Below are positions 5,079-63,900 of a DNA stretch of 64,000 nucleotides, piece by piece. Origin of the DNA: a virus; the IMG/VR virus record IMGVR_UViG_3300032431_000008, positions 74 to 64,073 of that record; one strand, 5' to 3'. The position numbers and the translations under genes are program-made. Every line of letters begins with the position of its first letter. Positions within the stretch are counted from its first letter, which is position 1. The notes under the pieces are model-generated. The model was not told the origin of the DNA, ran no database searches, and saw only the letters and a list, made by a program, of their open reading frames with translations.

Positions 5079-5804
5079 TTAAAGTAAGGTTGTCTGCGCG
5101 GTTTCGCGGGCGATGCGCTCTTTAGCCGCTGCAAAATAGTCCGCGTCGATTTCGCAGGCGGTCAGGTGCATCCCGGCGCAGTGGGCTGCAATGGCGTGCG
5201 AGCCCGATCCAAGGTGCGTATCTAGGATGCGTTGGCCGGGGATGGCGTAGTTGGCGAGAAGCCAGCGGTAGAGAGCGACCGGCTTTTGGGTCGGGTGGAT
5301 TCTTTTCTCCTTGTTACTCATGTCTCCTTGGAGCATTCCATTCCAGCGATACCTAAAGCAATCAATTCTAAGCCCGAATGAATGGCTGGCCAGCTCGCAT
5401 TTACTGAAAGTGCTAGAATCGTTTTCTTTGTCCCAAACAATCCGACCAACACTAGCGATGTGTTTTGCGTAATAATTGCACCCCCATATAATTTGATTTT
5501 TAGAAACTCGGGCAACCTCATTAAAGTATTCTGCATCTGGAACATGCCAATTTTTTTGTTTGGTTGGGAAACGAGTTATTCCTTTTTTGGTGGTATCCGC
5601 GCCTGCATAATTTGGCTTTCCGTATTCTGCAAAATAAGGCGGGTCAGTTATAGCCAGGTCAAAATGGTTATCGGGATAGCGAGCCATAAGCTCCATGCAG
5701 TCCTCGCAGCTTAGGTTGAGTGAGCCAACGGCAACGGCGGCATGGCGGGGAGTGGCTTCCGCGCCGTTGCTTTCAAGGGAAAAGGTTTCAGTAGTGGTAT
5801 TCAT
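5079..5804 (-). CDS. N6A/N4C DNA methyltransferase, beta class
   Basis: ITDPPY (motif IV) precedes HPTQKP and ILDTHLGSGS (motif I). Confidence 0.93.
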   Translation of the reverse strand: MNTTTETFSLESNGAEATPRHAAVAVGSLNLSCEDCMELMARYPDNHFDLAITDPPYFAEYGKPNYAGADTTKKGITRFPTKQKNWHVPDAEYFNEVARVSKNQIIWGCNYYAKHIASVGRIVWDKENDSSTFSKCELASHSFGLRIDCFRYRWNGMLQGDMSNKEKRIHPTQKPVALYRWLLANYAIPGQRILDTHLGSGSHAIAAHCAGMHLTACEIDADYFAAAKERIARETAQTTLL

Positions 5805-9284: not shown

Positions 9285-10661
9285 ATGGCCGAAAATATAC
9301 TTGAACAAGTAATTCAGCAGGACACGCCGCCTGCTTCCGACAATAAGGTATCCCAAGAGATCATCCAAGACGGCAAGGGCTCGACCCCTTCCAGTGGAGA
9401 AAAAGCACTTGAGGGGATTTTCGATTCATTCGCAAATGGCGATGACCCCTTTGCCGGTGCCAAGGCGGATGATGCCGTCGTCGTGGACGACTTTGGCGAT
9501 GGCAAGCCTGCCGTTAAGGTAGATGAAGTGCCTGCGGTAGTTGTTGAGGACAAGCCCGTGGCGGTGGTTGGGGAAAAGCCTGCCGTGGTTGCAGATGACT
9601 TTACCGATTTGACCGATGAGGACTTGACCCCCTCGCCACTGGATAAGCCCAAGACTGCCCGCCGCATCAACGCTTTGCTGGACAAGGTAAAAAAGACGGC
9701 TAATATCGTGGCTACTACCAAGGCTGAATTGGCCGAGAAAGCTACCAAACTGGCAGAGCTGGAGAAGAAGCTGAATGAGTCGGGTAGTTCTAATCCCGAG
9801 GTCCAGAAGCAAGTGGATGAGCTGTCCATGTATCGCCGCCGCTATCAATTGGAGACCGACCCCGAGGTTAAGACCAAGTTCGATGACGTGATTGCTTCGC
9901 GGGAAGTGGACATTGTGAACCTGCTCAAAGACAACAGTGCGGGCGAAGGGCTGATTAACCTGATTACCTCTGAGGGCGGACTGGTCAAGTTTGCCCGCCT
10001 GAACAAAAGCTACAAGCTAGCCGATGGATCAAGCGTGAGTGCGAAGGCTTTGTTTAACCGAATCCGCGATTCTCTTACCGAGACTAACCCTGCCGATGCC
10101 TTGGCGTTGGATGCGGCTATTCAAGAGCAATCCCGGCTAAGTTCAGACAAGATCCGCTACATTGAGAGCGAGAAGGCCCGTGCCAAGGAGTATTTTGGCG
10201 AACAGGAAAAGGCCCAACAGGAACGCTCGGTAAATATCAAGACGAAGATCGACACGTTTCTTTCCAAGATGGCAACTGAGGATAACGACTTTAAGGAATT
10301 GGCTATTCCAGCGGACGCTACGCCCGCGAAGATTGCGGAACTCAAGGAAGAGAATGTTTACCGCAAGCAACTGCGCGACATTGCCAAGTCGTCTATTGGG
10401 ATTACCGATGACGAGTATCTGAACATGGTGCGCGACTCGACGCTCCTCTACCCGGTTAAACGCTCACTGGCCCGCAGCGAAGAGCGCATTAAGGCACAGG
10501 ACGCGGAGATTGCCAAGCTTAAGGAGGACTTGGACAAGGTGCGTGGTGCCTCCTCGACCGTGCCTAAGCGCGGGGTTATCTCCACGTCCAAGGCGGACGC
10601 GCCGAAAGCTACCAAGGCCAAGACACTTGAAGAAGAGTTCGACGCTATTGGCGGAGAATAA
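9285..10661 (+). CDS. Probable scaffolding protein
   Basis: Acidic, low-complexity N-terminus and long coiled-coil; between portal and MCP. Confidence 0.6.
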   Translation: MAENILEQVIQQDTPPASDNKVSQEIIQDGKGSTPSSGEKALEGIFDSFANGDDPFAGAKADDAVVVDDFGDGKPAVKVDEVPAVVVEDKPVAVVGEKPAVVADDFTDLTDEDLTPSPLDKPKTARRINALLDKVKKTANIVATTKAELAEKATKLAELEKKLNESGSSNPEVQKQVDELSMYRRRYQLETDPEVKTKFDDVIASREVDIVNLLKDNSAGEGLINLITSEGGLVKFARLNKSYKLADGSSVSAKALFNRIRDSLTETNPADALALDAAIQEQSRLSSDKIRYIESEKARAKEYFGEQEKAQQERSVNIKTKIDTFLSKMATEDNDFKELAIPADATPAKIAELKEENVYRKQLRDIAKSSIGITDDEYLNMVRDSTLLYPVKRSLARSEERIKAQDAEIAKLKEDLDKVRGASSTVPKRGVISTSKADAPKATKAKTLEEEFDAIGGE

Positions 10662-10665
10662 CACC

Positions 10666-11589
10666 ATGCCCACCCTAATCAATAAGGTGTTGGCCAAGTG
10701 CGAAGAGCTTGGGCCAGCGGAAGCGGCTAGATACTTTGGAGTAACCCCCCAAAGTATTTACAACTGGCGCAAAGGCAAAAGCTCGCCGTCCATTGAGGCG
10801 ATTGAGCATGTGCTTGAAGATGAGGCCAAGATGAAGCCGCATGACGTCATCCACTGGACCGGGCGCAATGTAATGGTGCTCCTGCCCGTTTACCGGAATG
10901 TCTCGATTGAGACCCACTACACCCTGTTTGCCAACTATGCCAAGTATGGGCCGGAAAAGATCGGCATTATGATTGAGAAGCGCACGCTTATCCATGAGAG
11001 CCGGAATATCTTGGTGGACAAGTTTCTCAAGACAGATGCGGAGTGGTGTATCTTTTTGGACGACGATATGATTATGCCGTTTGGCAACGAGGCTTTGTTT
11101 ACCCAAAGGTATCGCTGCAATATCCCGTCTAAGTTTACGTCGCAAACTGCGTTTAGCCGGATAATGTCGCATGATGTGGATAAGCCTATTGTCGGCGCTC
11201 TCTACTTTGGGCGGCATGAGTTTGGCCGTGGTCAATGCGCGGATGGGTTTGCGTCTGACGTGGAGAATGCCGTCCTGCATGACTACAATCAGATTGGCGG
11301 ACTACGGGAACAGCGTTGGGTGGGGACGGGCATGATGCGTATTCACCGCTCGGTTATGGAAAAGATGAAGGCTGCGGCTGAAACTGAATGGCCGCATATC
11401 CTGCCAATGAACAATGAAGGGCAACCCGAGAAGCCGGTTGGCTACTTCACGCCTGACGTTGTAGGCCAAGGTGAGGATGTGGCGTTCTGCCTTCGTGCCG
11501 GTAAGCTGGGCATCCCTATTTACTTGGACACTGGTTTGGTTTGTTTGCACACGGGCGAAACGCACTTTGGCCCGCATAACACTCGTTAA
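10666..11589 (+). CDS. XRE-type HTH fused to a GT-A glycosyltransferase domain
   Basis: GPAEAARYFGVTPQSIYNWRKGKSSPS, then VMVLLPVY, IHESRNILV, CIFLDDD, GTGMMRIHRSV, GEDVAFC. Confidence 0.8.
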   Translation: MPTLINKVLAKCEELGPAEAARYFGVTPQSIYNWRKGKSSPSIEAIEHVLEDEAKMKPHDVIHWTGRNVMVLLPVYRNVSIETHYTLFANYAKYGPEKIGIMIEKRTLIHESRNILVDKFLKTDAEWCIFLDDDMIMPFGNEALFTQRYRCNIPSKFTSQTAFSRIMSHDVDKPIVGALYFGRHEFGRGQCADGFASDVENAVLHDYNQIGGLREQRWVGTGMMRIHRSVMEKMKAAAETEWPHILPMNNEGQPEKPVGYFTPDVVGQGEDVAFCLRAGKLGIPIYLDTGLVCLHTGETHFGPHNTR

Positions 11590-11610: not shown

Positions 11611-12267
11611 ATGTATATTGTAAATGATAGACTGGTCCGGTATAGCGTAGTTGTCGCCAAGATCATTCCGGCAAAGGGAAAGAAGCGGGAGTTGGTTGCG
11701 CAGATTCAGCAAAGCGCGCTCGACTCCTGGTTAAACGCGGCAAGTAAAGTCGTGCTCTTAAACAGGCCCGAGGAGATTCCGTATCTCAACGTAAAAGGTG
11801 CGATGTTTGAGGAAAAGTATGCGGATTCTCCTACGGTTATTTCAGCAATGGCCGTGCTGGGCGAGGAGTTGCCTGATAGTGGCTATGGTGTTCTGGTTGA
11901 GGACAGGGTTATCTTGGAACCAAAGGGCGCGCACGTTATGAACAACGTCAGGCTTGAGGCGCAACTGAGCAAGGCGTGGGTTGCCGTGGCGGACGTAGAT
12001 GTTGAGGACTTGGACGGCACTTTGCACGGGACAGGCGGGGCGGTGTTCTGGATCAGCAAGACAGTGGCCCGCTACCTCAAGGAGAGTTGCAAGAATCCGC
12101 CGCTACTGGAAAACTATCCGGTGTGGGCGTCGTGGTTGCAGGATGAGATTAAGGCCAAGGTGTTTGGGCATAGATACTTTGACGCCAGCCAGCATAACTT
12201 GGCCAAGGTAGTTGTGGTTAAGGGATTCGATGTGGTCGAGCTTACCATGCCATTTACCAAGCACTAA
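11611..12267 (+). CDS. Possible degenerate glycosyltransferase-like protein
   Basis: QQSALDSW...VVLLN pattern; within the GT cluster; no clear DxD. Confidence 0.35.
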   Translation: MYIVNDRLVRYSVVVAKIIPAKGKKRELVAQIQQSALDSWLNAASKVVLLNRPEEIPYLNVKGAMFEEKYADSPTVISAMAVLGEELPDSGYGVLVEDRVILEPKGAHVMNNVRLEAQLSKAWVAVADVDVEDLDGTLHGTGGAVFWISKTVARYLKESCKNPPLLENYPVWASWLQDEIKAKVFGHRYFDASQHNLAKVVVVKGFDVVELTMPFTKH

Positions 12268-12268
12268 A

Positions 12269-13015
12269 ATGAGAACCGATATTCTACTTGTAACCTACCG
12301 GAAAGACTATGATTGGGCGGTGCTTTGTTTGCGCTCCATTGAGAAGTTCGCGTTTGGATTTGGGGGCGTAACATTGGCGTGTCCGGTGGACGACGAAGCA
12401 ATCTTCGTGGCATTGGCAGCGAAGCATAGCCGGTCCGACCTGCCAATTCTGGTGAGGAGCTATATTCCAAAGAAGGGGTATGAGTTCAATCATCATCAGG
12501 TAATGAAGTGCTACTCCGATGTGCTGTGTCCAAAGGCTGACTACGTGCTGCATATTGATTCGGACTGCATCTTTACGGACTTGGTGGCCCCGAATGACTA
12601 CTTCAAGGACGAGAAGCCATACCTGTTAATGCGGATGTATCAGCATAGCGAGCCGTGGTATATCTGGCGGAAGCCAACTAGCCTGGCGCTGGGGGTGGCG
12701 TGTAACTATGAGACTATGGTAAGGCACCCTGCCGTTCATCCCGTGGCGACATATCGGGACTTGCGCGGATACATGGAGACGCTGCACGGCATACCCTTTA
12801 GTGAGTGGGTGCTTAAGCAGTCGGGGAATTACCCGGCCTGTCACTTTTCGGAGTTCAACACGCTTGGCAGTTACGTCCTGATTGCCTGTGCGGAGCGATA
12901 CGAAGTGATTGACACCGACAAGGTAGAGCAACCGCCAAGTAATTTGGTCCAAGGGTGGAGTTGGGGCGGGGCGGACAAAGCAAAGCAAGACTATGAAAAA
13001 ATCCTCTCGCGGTAA
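12269..13015 (+). CDS. Glycosyltransferase-like protein (DUF6492-like)
   Basis: ILLVTYRKD...LRSIEKF, QVMK, YVLHIDSDCIF, FSEFNTLG. Confidence 0.7.
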   Translation: MRTDILLVTYRKDYDWAVLCLRSIEKFAFGFGGVTLACPVDDEAIFVALAAKHSRSDLPILVRSYIPKKGYEFNHHQVMKCYSDVLCPKADYVLHIDSDCIFTDLVAPNDYFKDEKPYLLMRMYQHSEPWYIWRKPTSLALGVACNYETMVRHPAVHPVATYRDLRGYMETLHGIPFSEWVLKQSGNYPACHFSEFNTLGSYVLIACAERYEVIDTDKVEQPPSNLVQGWSWGGADKAKQDYEKILSR

Positions 13016-13778
13016 AATCTTGCTCAACATGCAAATGTCCCCCTTGGACTACAATCAGGGGGTGGCGTTGCTTAAGCTTATCTGTGATTTAGAGGACGGG
13101 AAACGCGAGGATGTGATTCTCATGCTCACCCATCGCTATGACATGAAGGTTGATCCCAACTTGGTGAGTGCGGTTAAGCAGAAGTTTCAGCATGTGCTGA
13201 CCCATGTTACCGAGCGGAAAGGCAACGGCTGGCCCGCTGGTCCCAATGCCATGATGGGGGATAGCTACTTGGCGGCGATAAACATGCAGCGCAGGGGCTT
13301 GGATATAGACGCGGTGATGTTCATGGAGTGTGACTGCGTGCCATTGGCCAAGGATTGGATAGACCAACTCAAGGCCGAGTGGGATAGTTGCCGTGAAGCG
13401 GGGAAGAGCGTCCTTGGCGCTTGGCTGGAAGTGGGGGATGCGGGAGGTAAGCATATTAACGGTAACTGCATTATTGCGGTGGACTACTGGCAGAAGAACC
13501 GGGGCATACTGAACTCGCCGGAAAACATTGGGTGGGATGCCTACCACGCGAATAGCATGTGTGCGGAAGGTTTGGCTAGCAGACTTATTTACTCGGACTA
13601 TCGGCTAGGGACTGCGGATAATCCGTGGAAGGGAGATGCGTATCTATGGGAAGCCAAGGGATATGGGACTGTAACTAATCCGTTTTTCGGGGAAAAACTA
13701 TTCCCGGTGTGGCTGCATGGGGTGAAAACTTTACAGGGGATAGAGGCAGTGTGTAAAAAACTATTGACTTCCGGTTAA
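12993..13778 (+). CDS. Glycosyltransferase-like protein
   Basis: GWPAGPN, MFMECDCVPL (DxD-like), HINGN. Confidence 0.55.
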   Translation: MKKSSRGKILLNMQMSPLDYNQGVALLKLICDLEDGKREDVILMLTHRYDMKVDPNLVSAVKQKFQHVLTHVTERKGNGWPAGPNAMMGDSYLAAINMQRRGLDIDAVMFMECDCVPLAKDWIDQLKAEWDSCREAGKSVLGAWLEVGDAGGKHINGNCIIAVDYWQKNRGILNSPENIGWDAYHANSMCAEGLASRLIYSDYRLGTADNPWKGDAYLWEAKGYGTVTNPFFGEKLFPVWLHGVKTLQGIEAVCKKLLTSG

Positions 13779-13987: not shown

Positions 13988-15217
13988 ATGGCTACTTCAT
14001 ACTGCGATCTGACCCCGGCACAATACTCCCAGGGCATCGCCAATCAGGTTTCAACTCTTCGGAACGATGTTATTCGCTTCCTCGCGCTCAACGACCCCTA
14101 CGCCAATCTTATCGAAGGTGGCACAACCGCAAATAACTCGGGCACGGAAATCCGCACCTTGGTTACTAACCGCATGGTTACTGGCCAGAGCCTTACCGCT
14201 CCCGCCTTTTCCGACACCATTGACAACTGTAATACTACTGGTCCTGCCGCCAAGAACGGCCAGACTGAGTTTACCACCAAGCTCCGCACCCTGCGTGGCG
14301 AAGGTCCGGTCATCTGCTTGAATCAGGCTCGCTACTCTGTTCTGGATTCTTACCGCGTTGCGGAGATGAATCTTAAGGATGCAGTGAAGTCCCTTAACTC
14401 GGCTGACATTCGTTCGCAGCTCCTCACCCTTTCCGGCGTGAAGGCAGTTGTGAAAACTGGCGATACCACCCTTGGCCAAGTGCTTACTGGTGGCTACAAT
14501 CAGGTTGCTGTCAACTTCCGTGGCGGTCTCCCCTCCCAGCCGGTCAGATACAAGTTCCTCGTAGCTCTCTCCAACTACATGCGCGATAATCTCTCGCCTG
14601 AGTTCTTTGGCGATGGTGCGGGCGGTCACTTCGTGTTCATCGCTGGCTCTGAGCAAATCGAGTCGCTGCGTAATGAGGCTGGTGTTAAGCAGGATCTTCT
14701 CGCTGCCGTTCAAGGTTCCTTCAAGGACACCAAAGACGCCCTCATGAAGTATGCCTTCATCGAGTATCCTTATCGCCAAATCAAAATGGCGATTGACCAA
14801 CAGCCCCTCCGTTTCAACACGGTGAATGGTTCTGGCTTCCCCAACTTCATTGAGCCTCTTGTCGAGACCGTCACTGACTTTGGTGTGGAAAATGCCACCA
14901 ATCCCGCTTGGATCAATGCCCGGCATGAAGTTGGCTTCCTTGTTTCCAAGGGCACCTTCAAGCGTCTGGTCCCTGAGCGTTTTATTGGCGAAGGTATGAG
15001 CAAGTTTGATGCACAGTTCATTATGGGCGAGCTTAGCTGGTTCTACTCCAAGGATAGCTGTAACAAGTTTGGCGACAACGGCCAATTCCTGTATCAGTTC
15101 GTGCGCGCCTTCCAGGCTCGTCGTCCCCACGGTGTAATTCCAATCCTGTATAAGCGTTGCGCGCAGGACTTGGGCCTTAGCGAGCTTTGCTCTAACATCG
15201 TAACTGACGTTATCTAA
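13988..15217 (+). CDS. Major capsid protein
   Basis: 409 aa; strong codon bias (C/T-ending codons); long leader; followed by a terminator. Confidence 0.8.
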   Translation: MATSYCDLTPAQYSQGIANQVSTLRNDVIRFLALNDPYANLIEGGTTANNSGTEIRTLVTNRMVTGQSLTAPAFSDTIDNCNTTGPAAKNGQTEFTTKLRTLRGEGPVICLNQARYSVLDSYRVAEMNLKDAVKSLNSADIRSQLLTLSGVKAVVKTGDTTLGQVLTGGYNQVAVNFRGGLPSQPVRYKFLVALSNYMRDNLSPEFFGDGAGGHFVFIAGSEQIESLRNEAGVKQDLLAAVQGSFKDTKDALMKYAFIEYPYRQIKMAIDQQPLRFNTVNGSGFPNFIEPLVETVTDFGVENATNPAWINARHEVGFLVSKGTFKRLVPERFIGEGMSKFDAQFIMGELSWFYSKDSCNKFGDNGQFLYQFVRAFQARRPHGVIPILYKRCAQDLGLSELCSNIVTDVI

Positions 15218-15341: not shown

Positions 15342-16898
15342 ATGGCAACGCCCATTTATAACGAGCTTACTTCACCCAAAAGTAATTTACTTGAATTATT
15401 GGCAGAGCAAAAGTCCGATGGGCAGACGGCAGGTAACGTAAATGGGGTGCAGCCCTTTGAGGTTCTGGCAGTTAAGGCGATGCTCAATACAGAGCAAAAG
15501 GCAGGCGCGGACATGGCCGCAAACTCGGTCAAGGTCCGTGCGGCCAACACCTCCGGCGCTTCGTCGGATTTGGCCCTTGCAGCTTCGCAGCTTCTAGGAC
15601 GCGGTGCGACGGGAGATGTTGCCCCCATCGTCCTAGGCGGGGGGTTGAGCATTACTGGCACGACGTTGAGCGCGTCGGGGGCGACCTTCCCGAGCTTTAC
15701 TGGTCAGACAGGGAGGTTCCTGCGTGTGAACGTCGCGGAAACCGCCGTGGAGTGGGCGGTACCTGCTGGCGGCGGTGGTGGGTTAGAGGCGGGAGACTTG
15801 CTCACTACTGCGCGCGTCGCCCCGGCTGGATATGTTCTGGCCAACGGCGCTGTATATCTAATAGCTACCTACCCCGTCCTTGCCGCTGCAATACCAAGGC
15901 AAATCGACAATGCGGCTGTATTTACGGCCCGCACCTCGGCTGCGGATAATCAGTGGTTTGGCGTCTGCTGGGCTCCTGCGCTTACTTTGTTTGTGGCTGT
16001 TGCTAATACCGGCGTGGGCAACCGAGTCATGACGTCACCGAACGGAACGACATGGACCATCCGCACATCGGCGGCTGATAACAACTGGGTTGCTGTCTGC
16101 TGGTCTGCTGGGTTAAGTTTGTTTGTTGCTGTCGCCATAAGCGGCGTGGGCAACAGAGTCATGACGTCACCAAACGGCATCAGTTGGACGATCCGTACTT
16201 CGGCTGCGGATAACAACTGGCGCGCTGTCTGCTGGTCGCCGGAACTTAGTTTATTCGTGGCTGTTGCCACTACCGGGACCGGCAACCGAGTGATGACGTC
16301 GCCAGACGGAACCACGTGGACAATCCGCACGTCGGCTGCAAACAATGATTGGCACTCTGTCTGCTGGTCGTCTGAGTTAAGTCTGTTCGTGGCTGTTGCT
16401 AATACTGGCGTGGGCAACCGAGTCATGACGTCACCGAACGGAACGACATGGACCATCCGCACATCGGCGGCTGATAACAACTGGCTTTCTGTCTGTTGGT
16501 CGCCGGAATTGAGCCTATTCGTGGCGGTCGCTACTACTGGAACCGGAAACAGGGTGATGACATCGCCAAACGGGATTGCGTGGACCATCCGCACATCGCC
16601 AGTGGACAATCAGTGGGTTGCTGTCTGCTGGTCGCCGGAGTTAAGTTTATTTGTTGCTACCGCCATAGATGGCGTGGGCAACCGGGTCATGACGTCACCG
16701 AACGGAATGACGTGGACCATCCGCACCTCGGCTGCCGATAACAGTTGGTGGGGTGTCTGCTGGGCTCCTGCGCTTACTTTGTTTGCGGCGGTTGCTACTA
16801 CCGGCACCGGCAACCGAGTCATGACACTAGGCCCAAGCTATAACGTCGCCACAAGCTTTGCCGTGCCGGACAGGCCTGGTATGTTTATTAAAACCTAA
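15342..16898 (+). CDS. Tail fibre / receptor-binding protein: split collar domain enclosing 7 propeller repeats
   Basis: APAGYVLANG...YPVL and FAVPD..GMFIK flank 7 copies of a 44-aa repeat. Confidence 0.75.
   Translation: MATPIYNELTSPKSNLLELLAEQKSDGQTAGNVNGVQPFEVLAVKAMLNTEQKAGADMAANSVKVRAANTSGASSDLALAASQLLGRGATGDVAPIVLGGGLSITGTTLSASGATFPSFTGQTGRFLRVNVAETAVEWAVPAGGGGGLEAGDLLTTARVAPAGYVLANGAVYLIATYPVLAAAIPRQIDNAAVFTARTSAADNQWFGVCWAPALTLFVAVANTGVGNRVMTSPNGTTWTIRTSAADNNWVAVCWSAGLSLFVAVAISGVGNRVMTSPNGISWTIRTSAADNNWRAVCWSPELSLFVAVATTGTGNRVMTSPDGTTWTIRTSAANNDWHSVCWSSELSLFVAVANTGVGNRVMTSPNGTTWTIRTSAADNNWLSVCWSPELSLFVAVATTGTGNRVMTSPNGIAWTIRTSPVDNQWVAVCWSPELSLFVATAIDGVGNRVMTSPNGMTWTIRTSAADNSWWGVCWAPALTLFAAVATTGTGNRVMTLGPSYNVATSFAVPDRPGMFIKT
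15933..16829 (+). repeat. Seven 132-bp intragenic repeats
   Basis: TSAADNxWxxVCWSxELxLFVAVAxxGxGNRVMTSPNGxxWTIR. Confidence 0.95.
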
Positions 16899-16906
16899 AG
16901 CAGACA

Positions 16907-17491
16907 ATGGCCCTACCTATTTACAATCAGTTCACGTCGGCTGAACAGAATGTCCTTCAGCTGTTGGCGGCGCAATCTGGGCCAAACCCGCCGATTGGCC
17001 AAGAAGCGTTTGCGGTGCTCATAACCAAAGCAGTGCTGAACATATTTCAGCCAGCGGGCGGGTCGCTTACTGAGGCAACGGCAGATGAGAGGTATCTAGG
17101 GAAGGCGAACAGTCTTTCGGATATTCCTAATCCGCAGCAGGCACTAGCCAATATAGGCGGTATGCCACGCACCGATTTCTTGACTGGACTGGTGGGGCTG
17201 GGCGGCGGGTATGTGGTGAGGCGGGGAGATGGTTCCGCAGCATCACGGGTTCTGCAAGCCGGGGCGGGAATCACGGTGGTTAATGGCGATGGAGACAGCG
17301 GGAACACAATTATCGGCTTAGATAGTCCAGTTGTTCCGGTGGACCTGACTTCTGCCACCTATGGCGCGGTTCCATTGGAGGTGGATTTCGGGATTAGGTT
17401 TACAGTTTTGGAGAACACGCAGGCTCCATTTGCGTTCCCGATTGAGGTAGATGGTGAATTGGTTGTTGAAGGGGTGCTCTATTCTGTTTAA
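16907..17491 (+). CDS. Tail-associated protein sharing its N-terminus with 15342..16898
   Basis: MALPIYNQFTS..NVLQLLA vs MATPIYNELTS..NLLELLA. Confidence 0.65.
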   Translation: MALPIYNQFTSAEQNVLQLLAAQSGPNPPIGQEAFAVLITKAVLNIFQPAGGSLTEATADERYLGKANSLSDIPNPQQALANIGGMPRTDFLTGLVGLGGGYVVRRGDGSAASRVLQAGAGITVVNGDGDSGNTIIGLDSPVVPVDLTSATYGAVPLEVDFGIRFTVLENTQAPFAFPIEVDGELVVEGVLYSV

Positions 17492-17505
17492 CCGTTGGTC
17501 CCATT

Positions 17506-17946
17506 ATGGCCAACCTATCACTTTTACAGACGGTCCCGAGTTCTTGGCCGGTTAGAGTTAATGCCTTGGCCATTGGGGCGACGACCACGGGCGGGGTAAG
17601 CGTGGTGAATGAAGTTTCACTTGAGAGGCAAGTAAGCCTTCGCATGGACGTGGTTACGGTGGTGCCCTTAACTGCTGGGACAACGGTAATGGCCGACACG
17701 GACTTTAACCAACTGCGGAATATGGCGGCGGCGGGAACGATAGCTACGCATACGGTTACTTTGCCGACCGATGCGAATAGCCGACTCGGGCAGGAGGTAG
17801 TTATTTCTACGCTGTTTGAGGTGACGGCGCTTACGATTAATGGGGCAACCACGATTCGTGGGTATTCCGCGCCGTTCCTGTTGGGGGCGGGGCTTAGCCG
17901 CCGATTAGTCAAGATCGCGGCGAACACCTGGGCAATCATCGGTTAA
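17506..17946 (+). CDS. Probable tail-fibre-associated protein
   Basis: Beta-rich, Thr/Val/Ala-rich; position. Confidence 0.5.
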   Translation: MANLSLLQTVPSSWPVRVNALAIGATTTGGVSVVNEVSLERQVSLRMDVVTVVPLTAGTTVMADTDFNQLRNMAAAGTIATHTVTLPTDANSRLGQEVVISTLFEVTALTINGATTIRGYSAPFLLGAGLSRRLVKIAANTWAIIG

Positions 17947-17958
17947 ACGATTACTCCC

Positions 17959-38236: not shown

Positions 38237-39066
38237 GCAAAACTGATGTAAGCCATTTCTACCGGCTGTTACCCACGGGTAAAGTCGAGTCCGCCTACGG
38301 TGCTTCGATCAAGGAAGCACGGGCAGGCGGATTATTCGCCTCGGCAACCATGGCCCTTAAGATGGTGGCCAATGTCGGGTTGGACATTTGGATCAGAGCA
38401 AACCTGTTGGACGCGATGGTGAACAACCCGCGCAATCCTGCGATGGAAAGTATCGAGGACTACAAGCAACGCATAGATGAGCTAAGCGAGGTTAAACGCA
38501 CCAACGCTGCTGAGTTCGGCACGGCCCTACACAACGCCCTAGAGCACTACCCGCTGCCCTGCCAGGACGACAAGGTGGCCCTTCACTACGCAGCCTGCGT
38601 CCCTTGGTTAAAAGCCAACGTGGCAAGCGTGATTGGCAGTGAGCTTATGCTGGCAGATGAACAGATAGGCTTTGCGGGCAAGACGGACTTGGTGTTTTTC
38701 GACAATGCAGGGGTGCCCTTCATCGTGGACTTTAAGACTACCGGCTTTAAGAAAACCAAGACTGGCAAGTGGGCTAAGCCTGCGTTTTACCAGTCATGGG
38801 TAAGACAGTTGGCGTTCTACGCCCGGTCCTACCAGAAGAAGTACGGCGGGCCATTGCCAAGGGTTATCTCGCTAGCCATTAACTCGGGTGAGCCATGCGA
38901 GCCGGTTGCGCGGTTCTGGACCGTGGAAGAGCAGGAGCAGGGCATGAACGAGTTCCTTTGCGCGGCCTACCTGTATTCCTGCGACCGGGACCATTGGCCT
39001 GCGGGTCTGTGGGAGTTGAAGGAGCAACGAGGTGGGTCCGTGTCAGTGGACGTGACAATCGTTTAA
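38233..39066 (+). CDS. PD-(D/E)XK exonuclease
   Basis: GTALHNALE, FAGKTDL, IVDFKT, QLAFY. Confidence 0.9.
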   Translation: MSKTDVSHFYRLLPTGKVESAYGASIKEARAGGLFASATMALKMVANVGLDIWIRANLLDAMVNNPRNPAMESIEDYKQRIDELSEVKRTNAAEFGTALHNALEHYPLPCQDDKVALHYAACVPWLKANVASVIGSELMLADEQIGFAGKTDLVFFDNAGVPFIVDFKTTGFKKTKTGKWAKPAFYQSWVRQLAFYARSYQKKYGGPLPRVISLAINSGEPCEPVARFWTVEEQEQGMNEFLCAAYLYSCDRDHWPAGLWELKEQRGGSVSVDVTIV

Positions 39067-39071
39067 CCGCC

Positions 39072-56732: not shown

Positions 56733-56751
56733 TATTTTGGTAAGTTATCGG

Positions 56752-57168
56752 TTAAACGCCGGTAGAGCCAAAGCCATTGGCGGCGCGGGTGGTTTGGTCT
56801 AGGGAGGAGGCTGGAGTGAGTTGTGGGTAGCAGACATTGGCAAAGACGAGCTGGGCAATGCGCGACCCCTTTTTTACCATGAAGTGCATATCCGTGGTGT
56901 TGTGCAGGATCGCGCTTACCTCGCCGCGATAGTCGCTGTCGATGGTGCCGAGAATGGCGACGATGCCGGACTTTGCGGCTAGGCCGGAGCGCGGGCGAAC
57001 CTGGGCTTCAAGGCCGTAAGGGATTTCAAGGGCGATGCCGGTGGGGATAACGGCAATGGCGCAGGCTTCGATGATGTGGTCACGACAGGCGTAGAGGTCG
57101 TAGCCGGAAGCGCCGGGAGTTCCCTGTGAGGGAATCATGGCGTCGGGGTGGAGAAATTTGATATTCAT
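56752..57168 (-). CDS. dut: Trimeric dUTPase
   Basis: SGYDL, PRSGLA, GTIDSDYRGE, RIAQLV, R..NGFGSTG. Confidence 0.97.
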   Translation of the reverse strand: MNIKFLHPDAMIPSQGTPGASGYDLYACRDHIIEACAIAVIPTGIALEIPYGLEAQVRPRSGLAAKSGIVAILGTIDSDYRGEVSAILHNTTDMHFMVKKGSRIAQLVFANVCYPQLTPASSLDQTTRAANGFGSTGV

Positions 57169-57363
57169 AGTTGGGTGAATTGAAGGGTGGTTCTGGTCCT
57201 TCGCAATCACGTCCTGTTTACATATCCCCTATGATTGCCATGGGGGAAGTGTAGCGATTCTAGTTAGGGGATAATGATTGATGGGTTTTCTGTGGTTCAT
57301 GGACTAGATGTGAACGGGTGGGTCTATTTGAGCCAAGGAAGTAAGTGAAATAATTGGAGTAGT

Positions 57364-58252: not shown

Positions 58253-58707
58253 CCGGTAGGCTTGTTTTTATCTATCAGGCCAAGGCAGGGTTTTCCTTCT
58301 TCGGACAGAATTACGTGAAACTCGGGGGAGATATTGCAAGAAATCCCCTTTTTTTCATATTCCTTTGCCAGTTCCTCAATGCACGTAGTGGCACACTGCA
58401 ATAGGTGTTCCATTTGGGCACTTGGAATGGGGCCGTATTTGGTAAATGCAAAGAGCATGGCTTGCGTGATTATTGTTTGCGCCTCGGTATTAGTAAAGGG
58501 GGAGTCTTCCATAAGATTGCCCTCGTTTTTGCCAATAATGTTTGGGGTTTCTAGGCAATGTAAAAGGCATGCGTGGATTGCATCTGCGCGTTCTTGGCCG
58601 GTTTTGCCGTTAGTGGCAAAAAACAAATCTCTTATTGTTTCACAGCATGTGTTAATGAATAATGAATAGGAGTTGAGGGACTTGGCCTCTGTTTGTTCTT
58701 GGTTCAT
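58249..58707 (-). CDS. Hypothetical protein
   Basis: 4-nt overlaps. Confidence 0.6.
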   Translation of the reverse strand: MNQEQTEAKSLNSYSLFINTCCETIRDLFFATNGKTGQERADAIHACLLHCLETPNIIGKNEGNLMEDSPFTNTEAQTIITQAMLFAFTKYGPIPSAQMEHLLQCATTCIEELAKEYEKKGISCNISPEFHVILSEEGKPCLGLIDKNKPTG

Positions 58708-59420
58708 TTCTGATAGGTGGCGAAAATATCGAATTGTGGCGAGTCGCTGGTCAGGGACTTGTCGGTTATTTCCCAGGTGTAGCCATGGCGGTGTAGAATG
58801 TCGGTAACGTCGGCCATTACATTACCTTGGCGGGCTAGTGCGCCGTGGTTAATCTCGATGAGGAGGTCGGGCTTGTGGTTGGTGAGTGTGTTTTCGGCGG
58901 AGAGGAGTGCTTTTACTTCCCATCCTTCCACGTCTATTTTAATGAACGAGAGCGGTTCGTCATTGTTTAAGATGAACCAGCAAATCCAGTCGATGGACCT
59001 GACCTTGATTTCGCTTCCGGTATTTTCAGTGCGGGCGAGATACGATGCGCCTGCGTTGGTATCGGCGATGAGTTCAACGGTGGCTAGCGAGTCCGCGTCC
59101 GTGCCCACTGCGTAATTCATCGCTATGGCACTTAGGTTAAGTTCAAGATTGTGTTGAATGTTGTATTCCAAGCAAGCAAAGGCGTGGGGGTTGGGCTCAA
59201 CGGCAAGGACTACGCCCATTGGCCCGACATGCTTGGACATGGTAAGGGCGGTATCGCCAATGAATGCGCCAATATCAATGCACACGCCACCGACTTTGAC
59301 GTTCTTAAGCCAAGGAAGGATCTGCCCTTCTTGAATGTCGAGACGACCTTGGGATTCTACCCATTGGGAGATATGGCTGTCAGTTTCGATTACGGCTATT
59401 CCGTGGGAGGTGAGTTTCAT
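58704..59420 (-). CDS. FkbM-family SAM methyltransferase
   Basis: CIDIGAFIG, VLAVEPNP, FIKIDVEGWE..AL. Confidence 0.9.
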   Translation of the reverse strand: MKLTSHGIAVIETDSHISQWVESQGRLDIQEGQILPWLKNVKVGGVCIDIGAFIGDTALTMSKHVGPMGVVLAVEPNPHAFACLEYNIQHNLELNLSAIAMNYAVGTDADSLATVELIADTNAGASYLARTENTGSEIKVRSIDWICWFILNNDEPLSFIKIDVEGWEVKALLSAENTLTNHKPDLLIEINHGALARQGNVMADVTDILHRHGYTWEITDKSLTSDSPQFDIFATYQK

Positions 59421-61257: not shown

Positions 61258-63900
61258 ATGACCAATGACCAAGTAAAGTTTATCCACTCGCTCTTGGAGC
61301 AAGGCAAGGAGAGCTGGGTAGATGCGGCCAACGCCATTCTCTACATATCCCAAATACCGGGGCAAGTGGCGCACTACGCGGAGGCCAAGATTATTGTGCG
61401 GGCGTTCCTGCAAAGGTTGCTGGACCATGACGACTACTTGCTGGCAGCTACGTTGCTGTGGGGGAATGTCCGGTTAAACACGCTTACCCAATATACGCAG
61501 GACGTGTTTCGGGCCATGCACGAGAACAACATGCTTTTGATCCAGGGTGGGGCATCGACGAGTAAGTGTCTAGGGCCGGACATTCCGGTGATGATGCACG
61601 ACGGATCAACCAAGAAGGCTAGGGACGTGGTGGTTGGCGACGTGCTCATGGGGGACGACTCCAATCCTCGGAATGTCCTGAGCACCACAAAAGGCAGGAG
61701 CAAGATGTATCGAATCACCCCTGAGCGTGGTGAATCGTGGATTTGCAATGACGAGCATATCCTGACAATGCGCGTGAATCAGGGCGACAAGTGGGCTGTG
61801 TTGGATATTCCCATTAAGGAATACATTGGATACCCGGAGTCGCGTAAGGCTGCGCTCAAGCAGTTTTCCGTTGGGGTGGAGTTTCCAGAGCAGCCGGTTC
61901 CCGAAGATCCATACATTTACGGTGTTCGGGTCGGCAACAATGAGCCTGGCGGGCAACTGATTCCTGAGTCCTACATGAAGAACAGCCGTGAGAATAGGTT
62001 TAGGCTTTTGGAGGGACTACTGGATTCTGATGGATACGTCGGCAAAACGAAAGCTACGGTCGCTATTAAAACCAAGTGGAAGTCACTTGCTGAGCAGATT
62101 GTTTGGCTGGCAAAGAGTCTAGGCTTTTACGCTAGATTCTCTGGTGACTATTCCTTGGTTTATATCAATTTTGACGAATGTAAATCAACTGCCAATGTTG
62201 GCATTGAAGTTGAGGGCATTGGGGAAGGTGAATACTGCGGGTTTAGCGTGGACGGGAATAGCCGATTCCTTTTGGGGGACTTCACCGTTACGCATAACAG
62301 CTACTCGATGGGAGCTTGGTTACTCCTTGACTGGATAAGAGATCCATATTTTACATCGGTCAAAATAGTCTCCAAGGACGAGAAGCATTTGAAGGGTAAT
62401 TTGTTTGGCCATATCTACTCCCTGTTCCAAGGCATGGCTATCCCGCTTACGGATAATGACGCGGAAGAAGTGGTATGGCGGGAGCACGATATGTTCCTTG
62501 GACTGAAAGCCGTGGGTAACATTGCCGGTTTGCAGGGGGAGGCACTTAAGCATTCGTCAAGTTCCTCGGGCGACTTGAAAGGGTATAAGCCTCAACCGCG
62601 CCGCAAAACGCCTCACCCAAAGTTCGGGAACATGTCTCGACTGCGGGTAGCGGTGGATGAGGCGCAATCGGCACCTGTGGGTATATTCCAAGATTTCATG
62701 TCCGTGCGAGGTTCCTTGGACGGGCTGGACTTGGTGAAGATCATTTGTGCCTACAATCCTACCAGCCTGAGCGATAGGGTGGTGAATGAGGCTGAACCTC
62801 TCCATGGCTGGATTGAGACCGACCTGGACACGCTGTATGAGTGGAAGAGCAAGAAGGGGTGGCGCGTGCTCCGGTTGGATGGCTCGCGGTCGGAAAACGT
62901 GGTAGCCAAGAGCAAGATATTCAGTGGCATCCAGACCTACGAAGGCTTTATAAGTTTCCTGCAAGGTGACGGTGCTGACAGTTCTCCCGACTACTTTACG
63001 TTCGGGCGTGGCTGGCCACCTCTCAAGGGTAGTGCCAACACGATTATCCCTGCTACTTGGTGCGTTGAGGCGCGGGGAGAAGCTGTGTGGTTGGAGAAGC
63101 CGATTATGGGGGCAAGCGTGGACCTTGCGTTCCAAGGAAGCGACACGGCGCAGATGACTATTTTTAAGTGGGGGCTGGCAAAGGGCTGGCGACGTGCCGA
63201 TGGGAAGTATGTCGAGTATGTTGACCGGACGAGCGCGGGGCGGAAGAAGCCAAGGCACGTACTGGAAGTTTACCAGATTATCCAGATGGAGAAGTCCTAC
63301 GATTCCATCCAGATGAGTGAGGAGATTACGGGTCGCTGTCAGATGTTGGGGATTTCACCGGATTGGACCGTCGTGGACAAGTCGGGTAGCGGCCTTGGCA
63401 CGTTCTCCCACCTTACGAAGTATTGGGGGAATATCATGGGGATTATGTGGGGCGATGGTGCTACGGATATGCTTGTCTTGGCGGAGGACCAAGAGGCCGC
63501 GTCGTCCCGGTTCCAAGGGATAATGTCGGAGATGTGGTTTGCTTTCCGTGAGTGGTTAAACCCCACGGTGGGGGCGATAATTATTAACCCCATGGTCCCA
63601 ACGTCGCCACTAAACGTGCAGTTGAGTTCACGCCGGTTTAGGTATGCGAAGAACGGGACGATGAAAGTTGAGAGCAAGGACGAGTATAAGCAACGGAACC
63701 AACGTAGCTGCGATGAAGCGGACAGCGTGATTCAGATTGTGCAGCTTATCCGCGCACGGGGGCATATTTTGCCTGGTATGATGGAACAGTCGGACTCCCG
63801 TTTCAGTAATCAGGAAACTGAGAAAGCTGGGCTGGAGACGGCTGACGTTGACGAATCACTTGCAATTGGCGGAGGGGGAGTCGAATACTTGGACCTATGA
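61258..63900 (+). CDS. terL: Terminase large subunit containing an intein
   Basis: Walker A GGASTSK|S, Walker B VAVDEAQ, nuclease region SVDLAF, VVDKSG, DEADS. Confidence 0.88.
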   Translation: MTNDQVKFIHSLLEQGKESWVDAANAILYISQIPGQVAHYAEAKIIVRAFLQRLLDHDDYLLAATLLWGNVRLNTLTQYTQDVFRAMHENNMLLIQGGASTSKCLGPDIPVMMHDGSTKKARDVVVGDVLMGDDSNPRNVLSTTKGRSKMYRITPERGESWICNDEHILTMRVNQGDKWAVLDIPIKEYIGYPESRKAALKQFSVGVEFPEQPVPEDPYIYGVRVGNNEPGGQLIPESYMKNSRENRFRLLEGLLDSDGYVGKTKATVAIKTKWKSLAEQIVWLAKSLGFYARFSGDYSLVYINFDECKSTANVGIEVEGIGEGEYCGFSVDGNSRFLLGDFTVTHNSYSMGAWLLLDWIRDPYFTSVKIVSKDEKHLKGNLFGHIYSLFQGMAIPLTDNDAEEVVWREHDMFLGLKAVGNIAGLQGEALKHSSSSSGDLKGYKPQPRRKTPHPKFGNMSRLRVAVDEAQSAPVGIFQDFMSVRGSLDGLDLVKIICAYNPTSLSDRVVNEAEPLHGWIETDLDTLYEWKSKKGWRVLRLDGSRSENVVAKSKIFSGIQTYEGFISFLQGDGADSSPDYFTFGRGWPPLKGSANTIIPATWCVEARGEAVWLEKPIMGASVDLAFQGSDTAQMTIFKWGLAKGWRRADGKYVEYVDRTSAGRKKPRHVLEVYQIIQMEKSYDSIQMSEEITGRCQMLGISPDWTVVDKSGSGLGTFSHLTKYWGNIMGIMWGDGATDMLVLAEDQEAASSRFQGIMSEMWFAFREWLNPTVGAIIINPMVPTSPLNVQLSSRRFRYAKNGTMKVESKDEYKQRNQRSCDEADSVIQIVQLIRARGHILPGMMEQSDSRFSNQETEKAGLETADVDESLAIGGGGVEYLDL
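61567..62298 (+). mobile_element. Intein (244 aa) with a degenerate LAGLIDADG domain
   Basis: Starts CLGPDIPV, block B WICNDEHIL, LLEGLLDSDG, ends VTHN followed by Ser. Confidence 0.95.

Follow-up and report, generated by a model that had tools for sequence, protein, structure and literature searches.

The gene at positions 10666-11589 (plus strand) of a 64,000-nucleotide stretch of viral DNA, hereafter the window (positions 74 to 64,073 of IMG/VR record IMGVR_UViG_3300032431_000008), encodes a Cro/XRE/CII-like helix-turn-helix (HTH) domain fused in frame to a glycosyltransferase (GT) domain of the GT-A fold. This protein, termed HTH-GT, is proposed with moderate confidence to be the first conserved enzyme of a virion-glycosylation cassette in the head operon, with a virion protein, probably the capsid protein, as acceptor. 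The proposal is based on the head-operon position of the gene, the presence of a second GT-A enzyme, the Ser/Thr-rich tails of the capsid proteins and the failure to find a hydroxymethyl-pyrimidine pathway in the 64,108-bp record, which is estimated to be 93% complete.

Overall architecture of HTH-GT

The open reading frame (ORF) starts with the ATG at 10666 and ends with the stop codon at 11587-11589. Its product of 307 amino acids was modelled with AlphaFold2 (AF2) from a 30-sequence alignment, giving a mean predicted local distance difference test score (pLDDT) of 92.2, and consists of the HTH domain (residues 1-55, 10666-10830), an inter-domain linker (residues 56-66, 10831-10863) and the GT-A domain (residues 67-307, 10864-11586), all on the plus strand. 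An HTH of about 55 amino acids in frame with a GT-A domain that carries a DDD motif, situated in the head operon, had been described in the initial annotation, and the ORF, the match to the Pfam family HTH_3 and the fold matches agree with this description.

The ATG is separated by 5 nt from the TAA stop codon of the directly upstream scaffold-like gene (9285-10661, plus strand), which codes for an acidic protein of 458 amino acids and owes its assigned scaffold role to position and composition only. A GGAG is located about 9 nt in front of the ATG, and nearly all relatives have a homologous large acidic ORF that stops a few nucleotides short of the GT gene; the scaffold-like gene and HTH-GT are probably translationally coupled. 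A longer, TTG-initiated frame from 10510 runs into the upstream gene and need not be invoked. The fusion recurs widely, with 214 homologues, nearly all full length at about 305 amino acids, that align end to end at 43-95% identity. A start codon in front of the HTH, likewise assumed before, is borne out by the conservation of residues 1-55 at the protein level in over 30 related phages and by a ratio of nonsynonymous to synonymous substitutions (dN/dS) of about 0.06 within the HTH. Since more than 200 full-length homologues exist and the HTH shows this low ratio relative to the closest relative, HTH-GT is, as judged from the sequences, a genuine fusion and not a mis-called start. Existing source labels for the homologues read only 'XRE-family transcriptional regulator' or 'hypothetical protein'.

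Within the GT domain, the DDD (DxD) motif for metal and nucleotide-sugar binding (D132-D134, 11059-11067, plus strand) comes directly after strand 127-131 of the AF2 model, as expected for the DxD of a GT-A enzyme. D132 and D134 are invariant in the 30-sequence alignment and D133 is conserved in at least 90%. Further invariant residues include R113, H295 and G269, E270 and D271 of the second acidic motif, GEDV (G269-E270-D271-V272, 11470-11481, plus strand). In a structural comparison with VIA-align the best match was A197 of Sulfolobus turreted icosahedral virus (STIV; Z 17.2, root-mean-square deviation 2.3 Å over 170 residues, 21% identity), and mimivirus R699 (Z 16.7), LH3 (Z 16.6) and Mnn9 (Z 15.4) scored similarly, the matches spanning residues 59-303. 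Foldseek returned 113 matches against the PDB at E<=0.001 (best E 6e-9); those listed are glycosyltransferases, headed by LH3, A197, ColGalT1, R699, Mnn9 and ppGalNAc-transferases. Phage GTs were matched in the structure search of BFVD at E 1.8e-15, and a glycosyltransferase family of PHROG matches the domain at E 1.6e-5. Among curated sequence families, Pfam gives only Anp1, at E 0.01 and under the cut-off, and a search of HTH-GT against NCBIfam gave no match. The domain rather forms a large sequence family of its own, with 828 representatives at E<=0.001, and its sole matches in phage records are head-region GTs of cluster J mycobacteriophages (26% identity over residues 67-302, E 3e-4). The charge of the GT core is about neutral. 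Going by these models, HTH-GT most likely encodes a soluble, metal-dependent GT-A glycosyltransferase.

A conserved cassette between scaffold and capsid

The gene order portal, scaffold, GT, variable genes, 261-aa gene, capsid is kept in 79 IMG/VR loci anchored on the GT, down to 28% identity. Independent sampling by the capsid protein yielded 57 loci with the portal gene in view. The GT was seen in 54 of the 57, between portal and capsid in 51 and as part of a rearranged module in three. It is absent from the other three (L124 and the pair L088 and L089, whose match coordinates are identical). At L088:7324-8129 the whole GT cassette is missing and ORFs of 186 and 81 amino acids are found instead between scaffold and capsid genes; the capsid protein of this locus is 63% identical.

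In the window, HTH-GT is followed by a variable middle of two genes (11611-12267 and 12269-13015, plus strand), the second with a weak match to DUF6492, whose presence varies among relatives. Next comes the conserved 261-aa gene (12993-13778, plus strand), located just before the capsid gene and kept in synteny. Its product was modelled by AF2 with a pLDDT of 95.5, and its closest structures in VIA-align (Z 12.4-14.7) are Manic Fringe (14.7), C1GalT1 (14.2), XylT1 (13.9) and the capsid GT of Paramecium bursaria chlorella virus 1 (PBCV-1; 12.4), with B3GalT6 also among them. Because this partner folds as a GT-A enzyme, two conserved GT-A genes enclose a variable middle right before the capsid gene. 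The major capsid protein candidate (13988-15217, plus strand) was assigned by position and length, and in relatives its homologue is likewise located after the cassette. For the portal-, scaffold- and capsid-like genes the Pfam and PHROG searches yielded no convincing family, and neither megablast with the head region as query in the phage collection nor a tblastn search with the capsid protein gave a match.

A cassette of this kind could also serve to alter a host glycan, either an envelope polysaccharide or a glycoprotein, late in infection, for example as a block to superinfection or as an aid to release. Phage GTs that change host surface glycans are well known, as stated in general terms in PMC12619734. 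However, the enzymes are soluble, with models that display no apparent membrane segment, and the cassette is fixed in the head operon across a deep clade; modification of host glycans is considered extremely unlikely.

Virion protein or DNA as acceptor

The C-terminal tails of the capsid proteins follow a conserved YKRC..GL..C motif and have a median Ser+Thr fraction of 0.38, compared with 0.12 in the rest of the protein (92 non-redundant sequences). Ser and Thr are thus enriched about three-fold over the body of the protein, and typical tails read CSTSSTGL, CTGLTDLSI and SSSSFSGSDSF. Across the clade, these short, Ser/Thr-rich tails represent candidate O-glycosylation sites. In the window, the last 8 codons of the capsid gene (15191-15214, plus strand) are proposed as acceptor. 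A clean correlation between loss of the GT and loss of the tail was considered and rejected: GT-less L088 has a shorter tail, but in L099 the GT motifs are intact although the tail is short.

Downstream of the capsid gene, 34 of 98 loci from non-redundant relatives carry collagen-like (GXY)n genes, often GXT-rich, such as L025:12336-14219, L067:14162-16570 and those of L132, L143 and L149. The window lacks a collagen-like gene and has a beta-propeller/tail-collar gene there instead (15342-16898). Given the LH3/ColGalT1-like GT fold seen in the models, collagen-like proteins are possible alternative glycan acceptors.

A different acceptor is assumed if HTH-GT is a DNA glycosyltransferase, with the HTH directing the GT-A domain to the DNA of the phage, perhaps to sites of the enriched 8-mer GGTTAAAC, so that a base is glycosylated before packaging. 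The initial annotation had named DNA-targeted glycosylation among its suggestions, next to a sugar-nucleotide-sensing regulator of the GT cluster and an enzyme with a repurposed oligomerisation domain; glycosylation of a virion protein was not one of them. In addition to the HTH itself, the arrangement R113...DDD...E270-D271 is reminiscent of R...DDD...EDY/F in the GT-A enzymes that act on phage DNA, and late expression would be compatible with modification of DNA ahead of packaging. R113, DDD and E270-D271-V272 are general features of GT-A enzymes, and the resemblance to the JGT-like enzymes is one of motif description. However, ThyS (PF00303) was not found in the 64-kb, 93%-complete genome and occurs in one of 20 near-complete relatives. 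TET/JBP (PF12851) was found neither in the genome nor in any of these 20 relatives, a negative that is weak because the Tet_JBP search matched no control genome either. The TET-associated GT of phage phiRSL1 appears only at rank 47 among the viral structure matches (E 9.4e-5, compared with 1.8e-15 for the top match), and the nearest structures are protein-glycosylating enzymes. Finally, the GT core is not basic, and most of the family has the same GT in the same head slot without an HTH. Glycosylation of DNA, which these results speak against, is therefore regarded as very unlikely.

The 8-mer itself is a genuine feature of the window: GGTTAAAC occurs in 36 copies where 1.8 are expected, an about 20-fold enrichment found in both orientations, and it forms a stand-alone (C/T)GGTTAAAC(G/A) word with no consensus further out. 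This enrichment speaks in favor of a DNA glycosyltransferase. However, among about 30 HTH-bearing phages it is restricted to the window and its relative L011, and a near-identical word, GTTTAAAC, is about 30-fold enriched in L158 and L060, two relatives without the HTH. For these reasons GGTTAAAC is unsupported as a target of the HTH, the role in which it had been put forward in the initial annotation; the enrichment was confirmed and the link was not found. Other enriched 8-mers in relatives are mostly collagen-repeat codons. Examples of GGTTAAAC sites are located at 17486-17493, 17941-17948, 39061-39068 and 56750-56757, and at least four copies provide the TAA stop codon of a gene (three genes with their ends at 17491, 17946 and 39066, and gene 56752-57210 on the minus strand). 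An N6/N4 DNA methyltransferase is encoded at 5079-5804 of the window (minus strand, Pfam E 1.2e-13), beside the divergent promoter region that precedes the portal gene. This enzyme is a candidate, and a more conventional one than HTH-GT, for the recognition of a short asymmetric word.

The HTH as a conserved but exchangeable module

Residues 1-60 scanned alone match HTH_3 (PF01381) with 24.1 bits (E 3.7e-5), compared with 20.4 bits for the whole protein. The curated cut-off of 23 bits is thus reached only by the N-terminal part scanned separately, and the match is marginal but consistent. HTH_17, HTH_23, YdaS and P22 Cro score under HTH_3, PF01381 is precomputed on several homologues, and repressor and regulator families of PHROG match the same stretch. 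Folding of the N-terminus as an HTH, on which the initial annotation depended, is predicted by two kinds of model. AF2 yields a four-helix bundle (helices 4-15, 17-24, 28-36 and 43-55, pLDDT 81-95), and an independent model of residues 1-58 from the ESM Atlas can be superposed, with a template modelling (TM) score of 0.60-0.67, on clusters of which 87-100% are HTH_3. A profile of 25 HTH regions compared with the PDB matched lambda CII (E 0.019), the small terminase Nu1 of lambda (E 0.03-0.04), Cro, HigA and MqsA, all of them marginal matches and all phage-type HTH proteins. The motif F24-G-V-(S/T)-x-x-(S/T)-(I/V)-x-x-W34-x-x-G-K-x-x-P41-S corresponds to the 'SxW' type of Cro and CII, with W34 invariant in the alignment of the 25 sequences.

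Comparison with L011, the closest relative for which DNA is available, gives 91% identity, a dN of 0.091 and a dS of 1.43 for the HTH; the enzyme domain (78% identity, dN 0.147) is no more constrained than this. Owing to this identity and the dN/dS of about 0.06, the HTH can be taken to be functional and under strong purifying selection. The linker evolves nearly freely, with 64% identity to L011 and a dN/dS of about 0.9 (11 codons only). It varies in length and sequence, corresponds to gappy, unconserved columns in alignment A1, and its pLDDT dips to 70 in the AF2 model.

Despite this constraint the HTH is not a constant part of the enzyme. In a tree of 99 non-redundant GT cores, for each of which the N-terminal state was scored, 31 cores carry the HTH and 40 a short N-terminus, while 21 have a short [ND]PF motif with a long acidic/proline-rich linker behind it and seven another long extension. 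On this tree at least 4-5 changes of the HTH state are required, and the HTH was lost at least four times. Clean deletions are found even in the window's own clade (23 rows; support of 95 in the Shimodaira-Hasegawa-like approximate likelihood ratio test, SH-aLRT), in L018/L020 and L033/L034. The GT core holds the slot between scaffold and capsid in relatives without the HTH as well. With a hidden Markov model (HMM) of the HTH, matches were obtained in fusions with this GT only; in the neighbourhood the domain was never detected as an ORF of its own.

In the [ND]PF type, the conserved short motif precedes an acidic/proline-rich linker of about 100 amino acids. Some distant relatives display an acidic, coiled-coil-like N-terminal sequence of 230-260 amino acids, and in P0202 240 amino acids are followed by HTH and GT. 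N-terminal modules other than the HTH were seen in the GT genes of L050, L054, L067, L073, L077, L071 and L061 as well as in P0160, P0163, P0208 and P0202. The long extensions of the distant GTs match no Pfam family. A fusion of scaffold and GT was considered as their source and is unsupported, because they show no significant similarity to the scaffold (BLAST to the scaffold-like protein of the window, E 0.084). The [ND]PF motif, which occurs in the extensions and in some scaffolds but is not conserved across scaffolds, was dropped as evidence. In conclusion, the comparison of sequences presents HTH-GT as a constant catalytic core with an interchangeable N-terminal module on a flexible linker, in which the HTH is an accessory that is evolutionarily labile and dispensable but selected.

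The N-terminal domain is proposed to bind DNA. Positions conserved across all three HTH clades belong to the hydrophobic core (A20, F24, V26, W34 and A45), whereas residues of the recognition helix are constant inside clades and different between them, a pattern compatible with specific DNA sites that diverge as well as with a partner that co-evolves. The net charge of the HTH ranges from -2 to +2 across homologues, with a median of 0. The conserved core and this near-neutral charge would suit an HTH that no longer binds DNA and acts as a protein-interaction or oligomerisation module, docking the GT on scaffold, portal, procapsid or a partner enzyme. Its function would then be equivalent to that of the other N-terminal extensions, and sister clades indeed put very different modules on the same GT core. 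On the other hand, the HTH_3 threshold is reached and polar residues are kept in the recognition helix, while such a partner is hypothetical and the long extensions resemble the scaffold only at the insignificant E value given above. A purely docking HTH is judged to be unlikely.

Clade-specific recognition helices are equally expected if HTH-GT is an enzyme-regulator. BirA and NadR carry an N-terminal HTH that is joined by a linker to an enzyme domain, and by analogy the HTH could occupy a phage operator, and a nucleotide-sugar or acceptor bound in the GT site could alter oligomerisation and DNA binding. Transcription of late or head genes would thereby be tied to glycosylation capacity. The closest relatives of the HTH are phage regulators (CII and Cro), and the restriction of this HTH subfamily to GT fusions is in line with such a switch. 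However, the gene lacks an upstream intergenic region, lying 5 nt behind the scaffold stop codon. No operator-like word conserved in the intergenic DNA of the head module was found in 17 HTH-bearing relatives, and a discriminative search for 7- and 8-mers common to the intergenic DNA of HTH-bearing phages retrieved only words resembling ribosome-binding sites or stop codons. A scan for promoters and terminators stayed at background level, with no excess of promoter-like sites. The methods of these searches, for words as well as for promoters, are crude, and the promoter type of the host may differ. Considering also the repeated loss of the HTH while GT and cassette were kept, a BirA-like regulator appears quite unlikely.

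Proposed role in virion assembly

If a virion protein is glycosylated, as favored here, HTH-GT would be made late, along with scaffold and capsid protein, and would move a sugar from a nucleotide-sugar onto a virion protein, the likeliest acceptor being the short, Ser/Thr-containing C-terminal tail of the capsid protein. The second GT-A enzyme (12993-13778) and the variable middle genes could extend or tailor the glycan. Provided that the HTH binds DNA, it would hold the enzyme at phage DNA where heads fill, or feed back on late transcription.

Several points weigh against this proposal. The phage is uncultured and its glycoprotein is a prediction, and the identities of capsid and scaffold are positional, without family matches. 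The window's own capsid tail, SNIVTDVI, contains only two Ser/Thr in eight residues, and the tail of the GT-less L088, although it ends five residues earlier than those of GT-bearing relatives, still has a Thr. The R...DDD...ED pattern is also like that of the JGT-like DNA GT-A enzymes (Pyle et al., bioRxiv 10.1101/2023.12.21.572611). Furthermore, the HTH of the window (net charge -2, isoelectric point 5.2) is atypical for a non-specific DNA tether, and the search for a conserved operator-like word was negative.

A bolder version, considered very unlikely, takes the HTH as a true DNA tether, with a GT that works on phage DNA or travels with it. Either DNA would be glycosylated by a non-hydroxymethyl route, or the enzyme would be borne in the capsid and injected. 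In the latter case the enzyme may be carried into the capsid on the DNA, and in sister clades by scaffold-like N-terminal extensions, to reach the next host. A milder version, in which a BirA-like switch links the glycosylation state of the capsid to late transcription, may also be conceived.

Independent of the acceptor, the HTH-GT gene marks a large clade of uncultured phages in which a GT-A enzyme is almost universal in the head operon, and its fused HTH is kept under strong selection yet discarded repeatedly. The ligand of the HTH would tell whether phages couple the decoration of their particles to their own DNA, spatially or transcriptionally. It would also correct the label of an enzyme of the structural module that is systematically mis-annotated as a regulator.

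Other genes of the genome

In addition to the N6/N4 DNA methylase, the genome encodes DnaB, a PD-(D/E)XK nuclease, an RNA ligase, a dUTPase and an FkbM methyltransferase. The latter (58704-59420, minus strand, Pfam E 5.8e-21) is located far from the cassette and may methylate the glycan; one BFVD match (E 1.6e-13) contains the same GT type within a 788-aa phage protein named 'Methyltransferase FkbM'. An 880-aa gene (61258-63900, plus strand) harbors an intein-like insert at residues ~109-294, with Hint (E 4.6e-13) and LAGLIDADG matches.

Comparison with known systems

To our knowledge, only a few mycobacteriophages have so far been shown to glycosylate their virions with enzymes of their own. 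According to papers that cite it, a 2023 study by Freeman and colleagues dealt with the virion glycosylation genes of Che8, Corndog and Myrna. BirA and NadR resemble HTH-GT in the layout of HTH, linker and enzyme only; their enzyme parts are not homologous, and no operator was found for HTH-GT.

Among GT-A enzymes proposed to act on capsids, STIV A197, the proposed GT for the STIV major capsid protein (PMC10551542), is the best structural match and is likewise viral, soluble and equipped with a DxD motif. In contrast to HTH-GT it carries no extra domain and belongs to a virus of archaea whose capsid fold differs, and its acceptor, too, is only proposed. LH3/PLOD3, ColGalT1 and the collagen GTs of the mimivirus R699/L230 type are top matches in Foldseek and VIA-align and glycosylate proteins, and many relatives of the window have genes for collagen-like (GXY)n proteins behind the capsid gene. 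However, sequence identity amounts to 11-15%, a lysyl hydroxylase is missing here, and so is a collagen-like gene in the window. The JGT-like, TET-associated GT-A DNA glycosyltransferases of phages, characterized by R...DDD...ED motifs (Pyle et al.), share the GT-A fold and, by description, these motifs. They differ in that no 5mYOX or ThyS partner was found for HTH-GT, which is encoded in a head operon and not in a DNA-metabolism neighbourhood, and in their weak structural rank.

Mycobacteriophages provide a further parallel. Head-region GT clusters are present in cluster J (PMC3706429), and glycans have been reported on the C-termini of capsid subunits, according to a passage of PMC12619734 that cites Freeman et al. 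2023. The enrichment of Ser and Thr in the capsid tails parallels these C-terminal glycans. As in the mycobacteriophages, GT-A enzymes are encoded in or beside the structural operon, and sequence similarity to the cluster J GTs is detectable but weak. Differences are found in lineage and host, in the location between scaffold and capsid, in the glycan, which here is a prediction, and in the HTH, which is not reported on the mycobacteriophage enzymes. The HTH-GT cassette is thus most likely a variant of the head-operon glycosylation of the mycobacteriophage type, to which the fusion of a Cro-type HTH with a GT-A enzyme adds a hitherto unannotated architecture.

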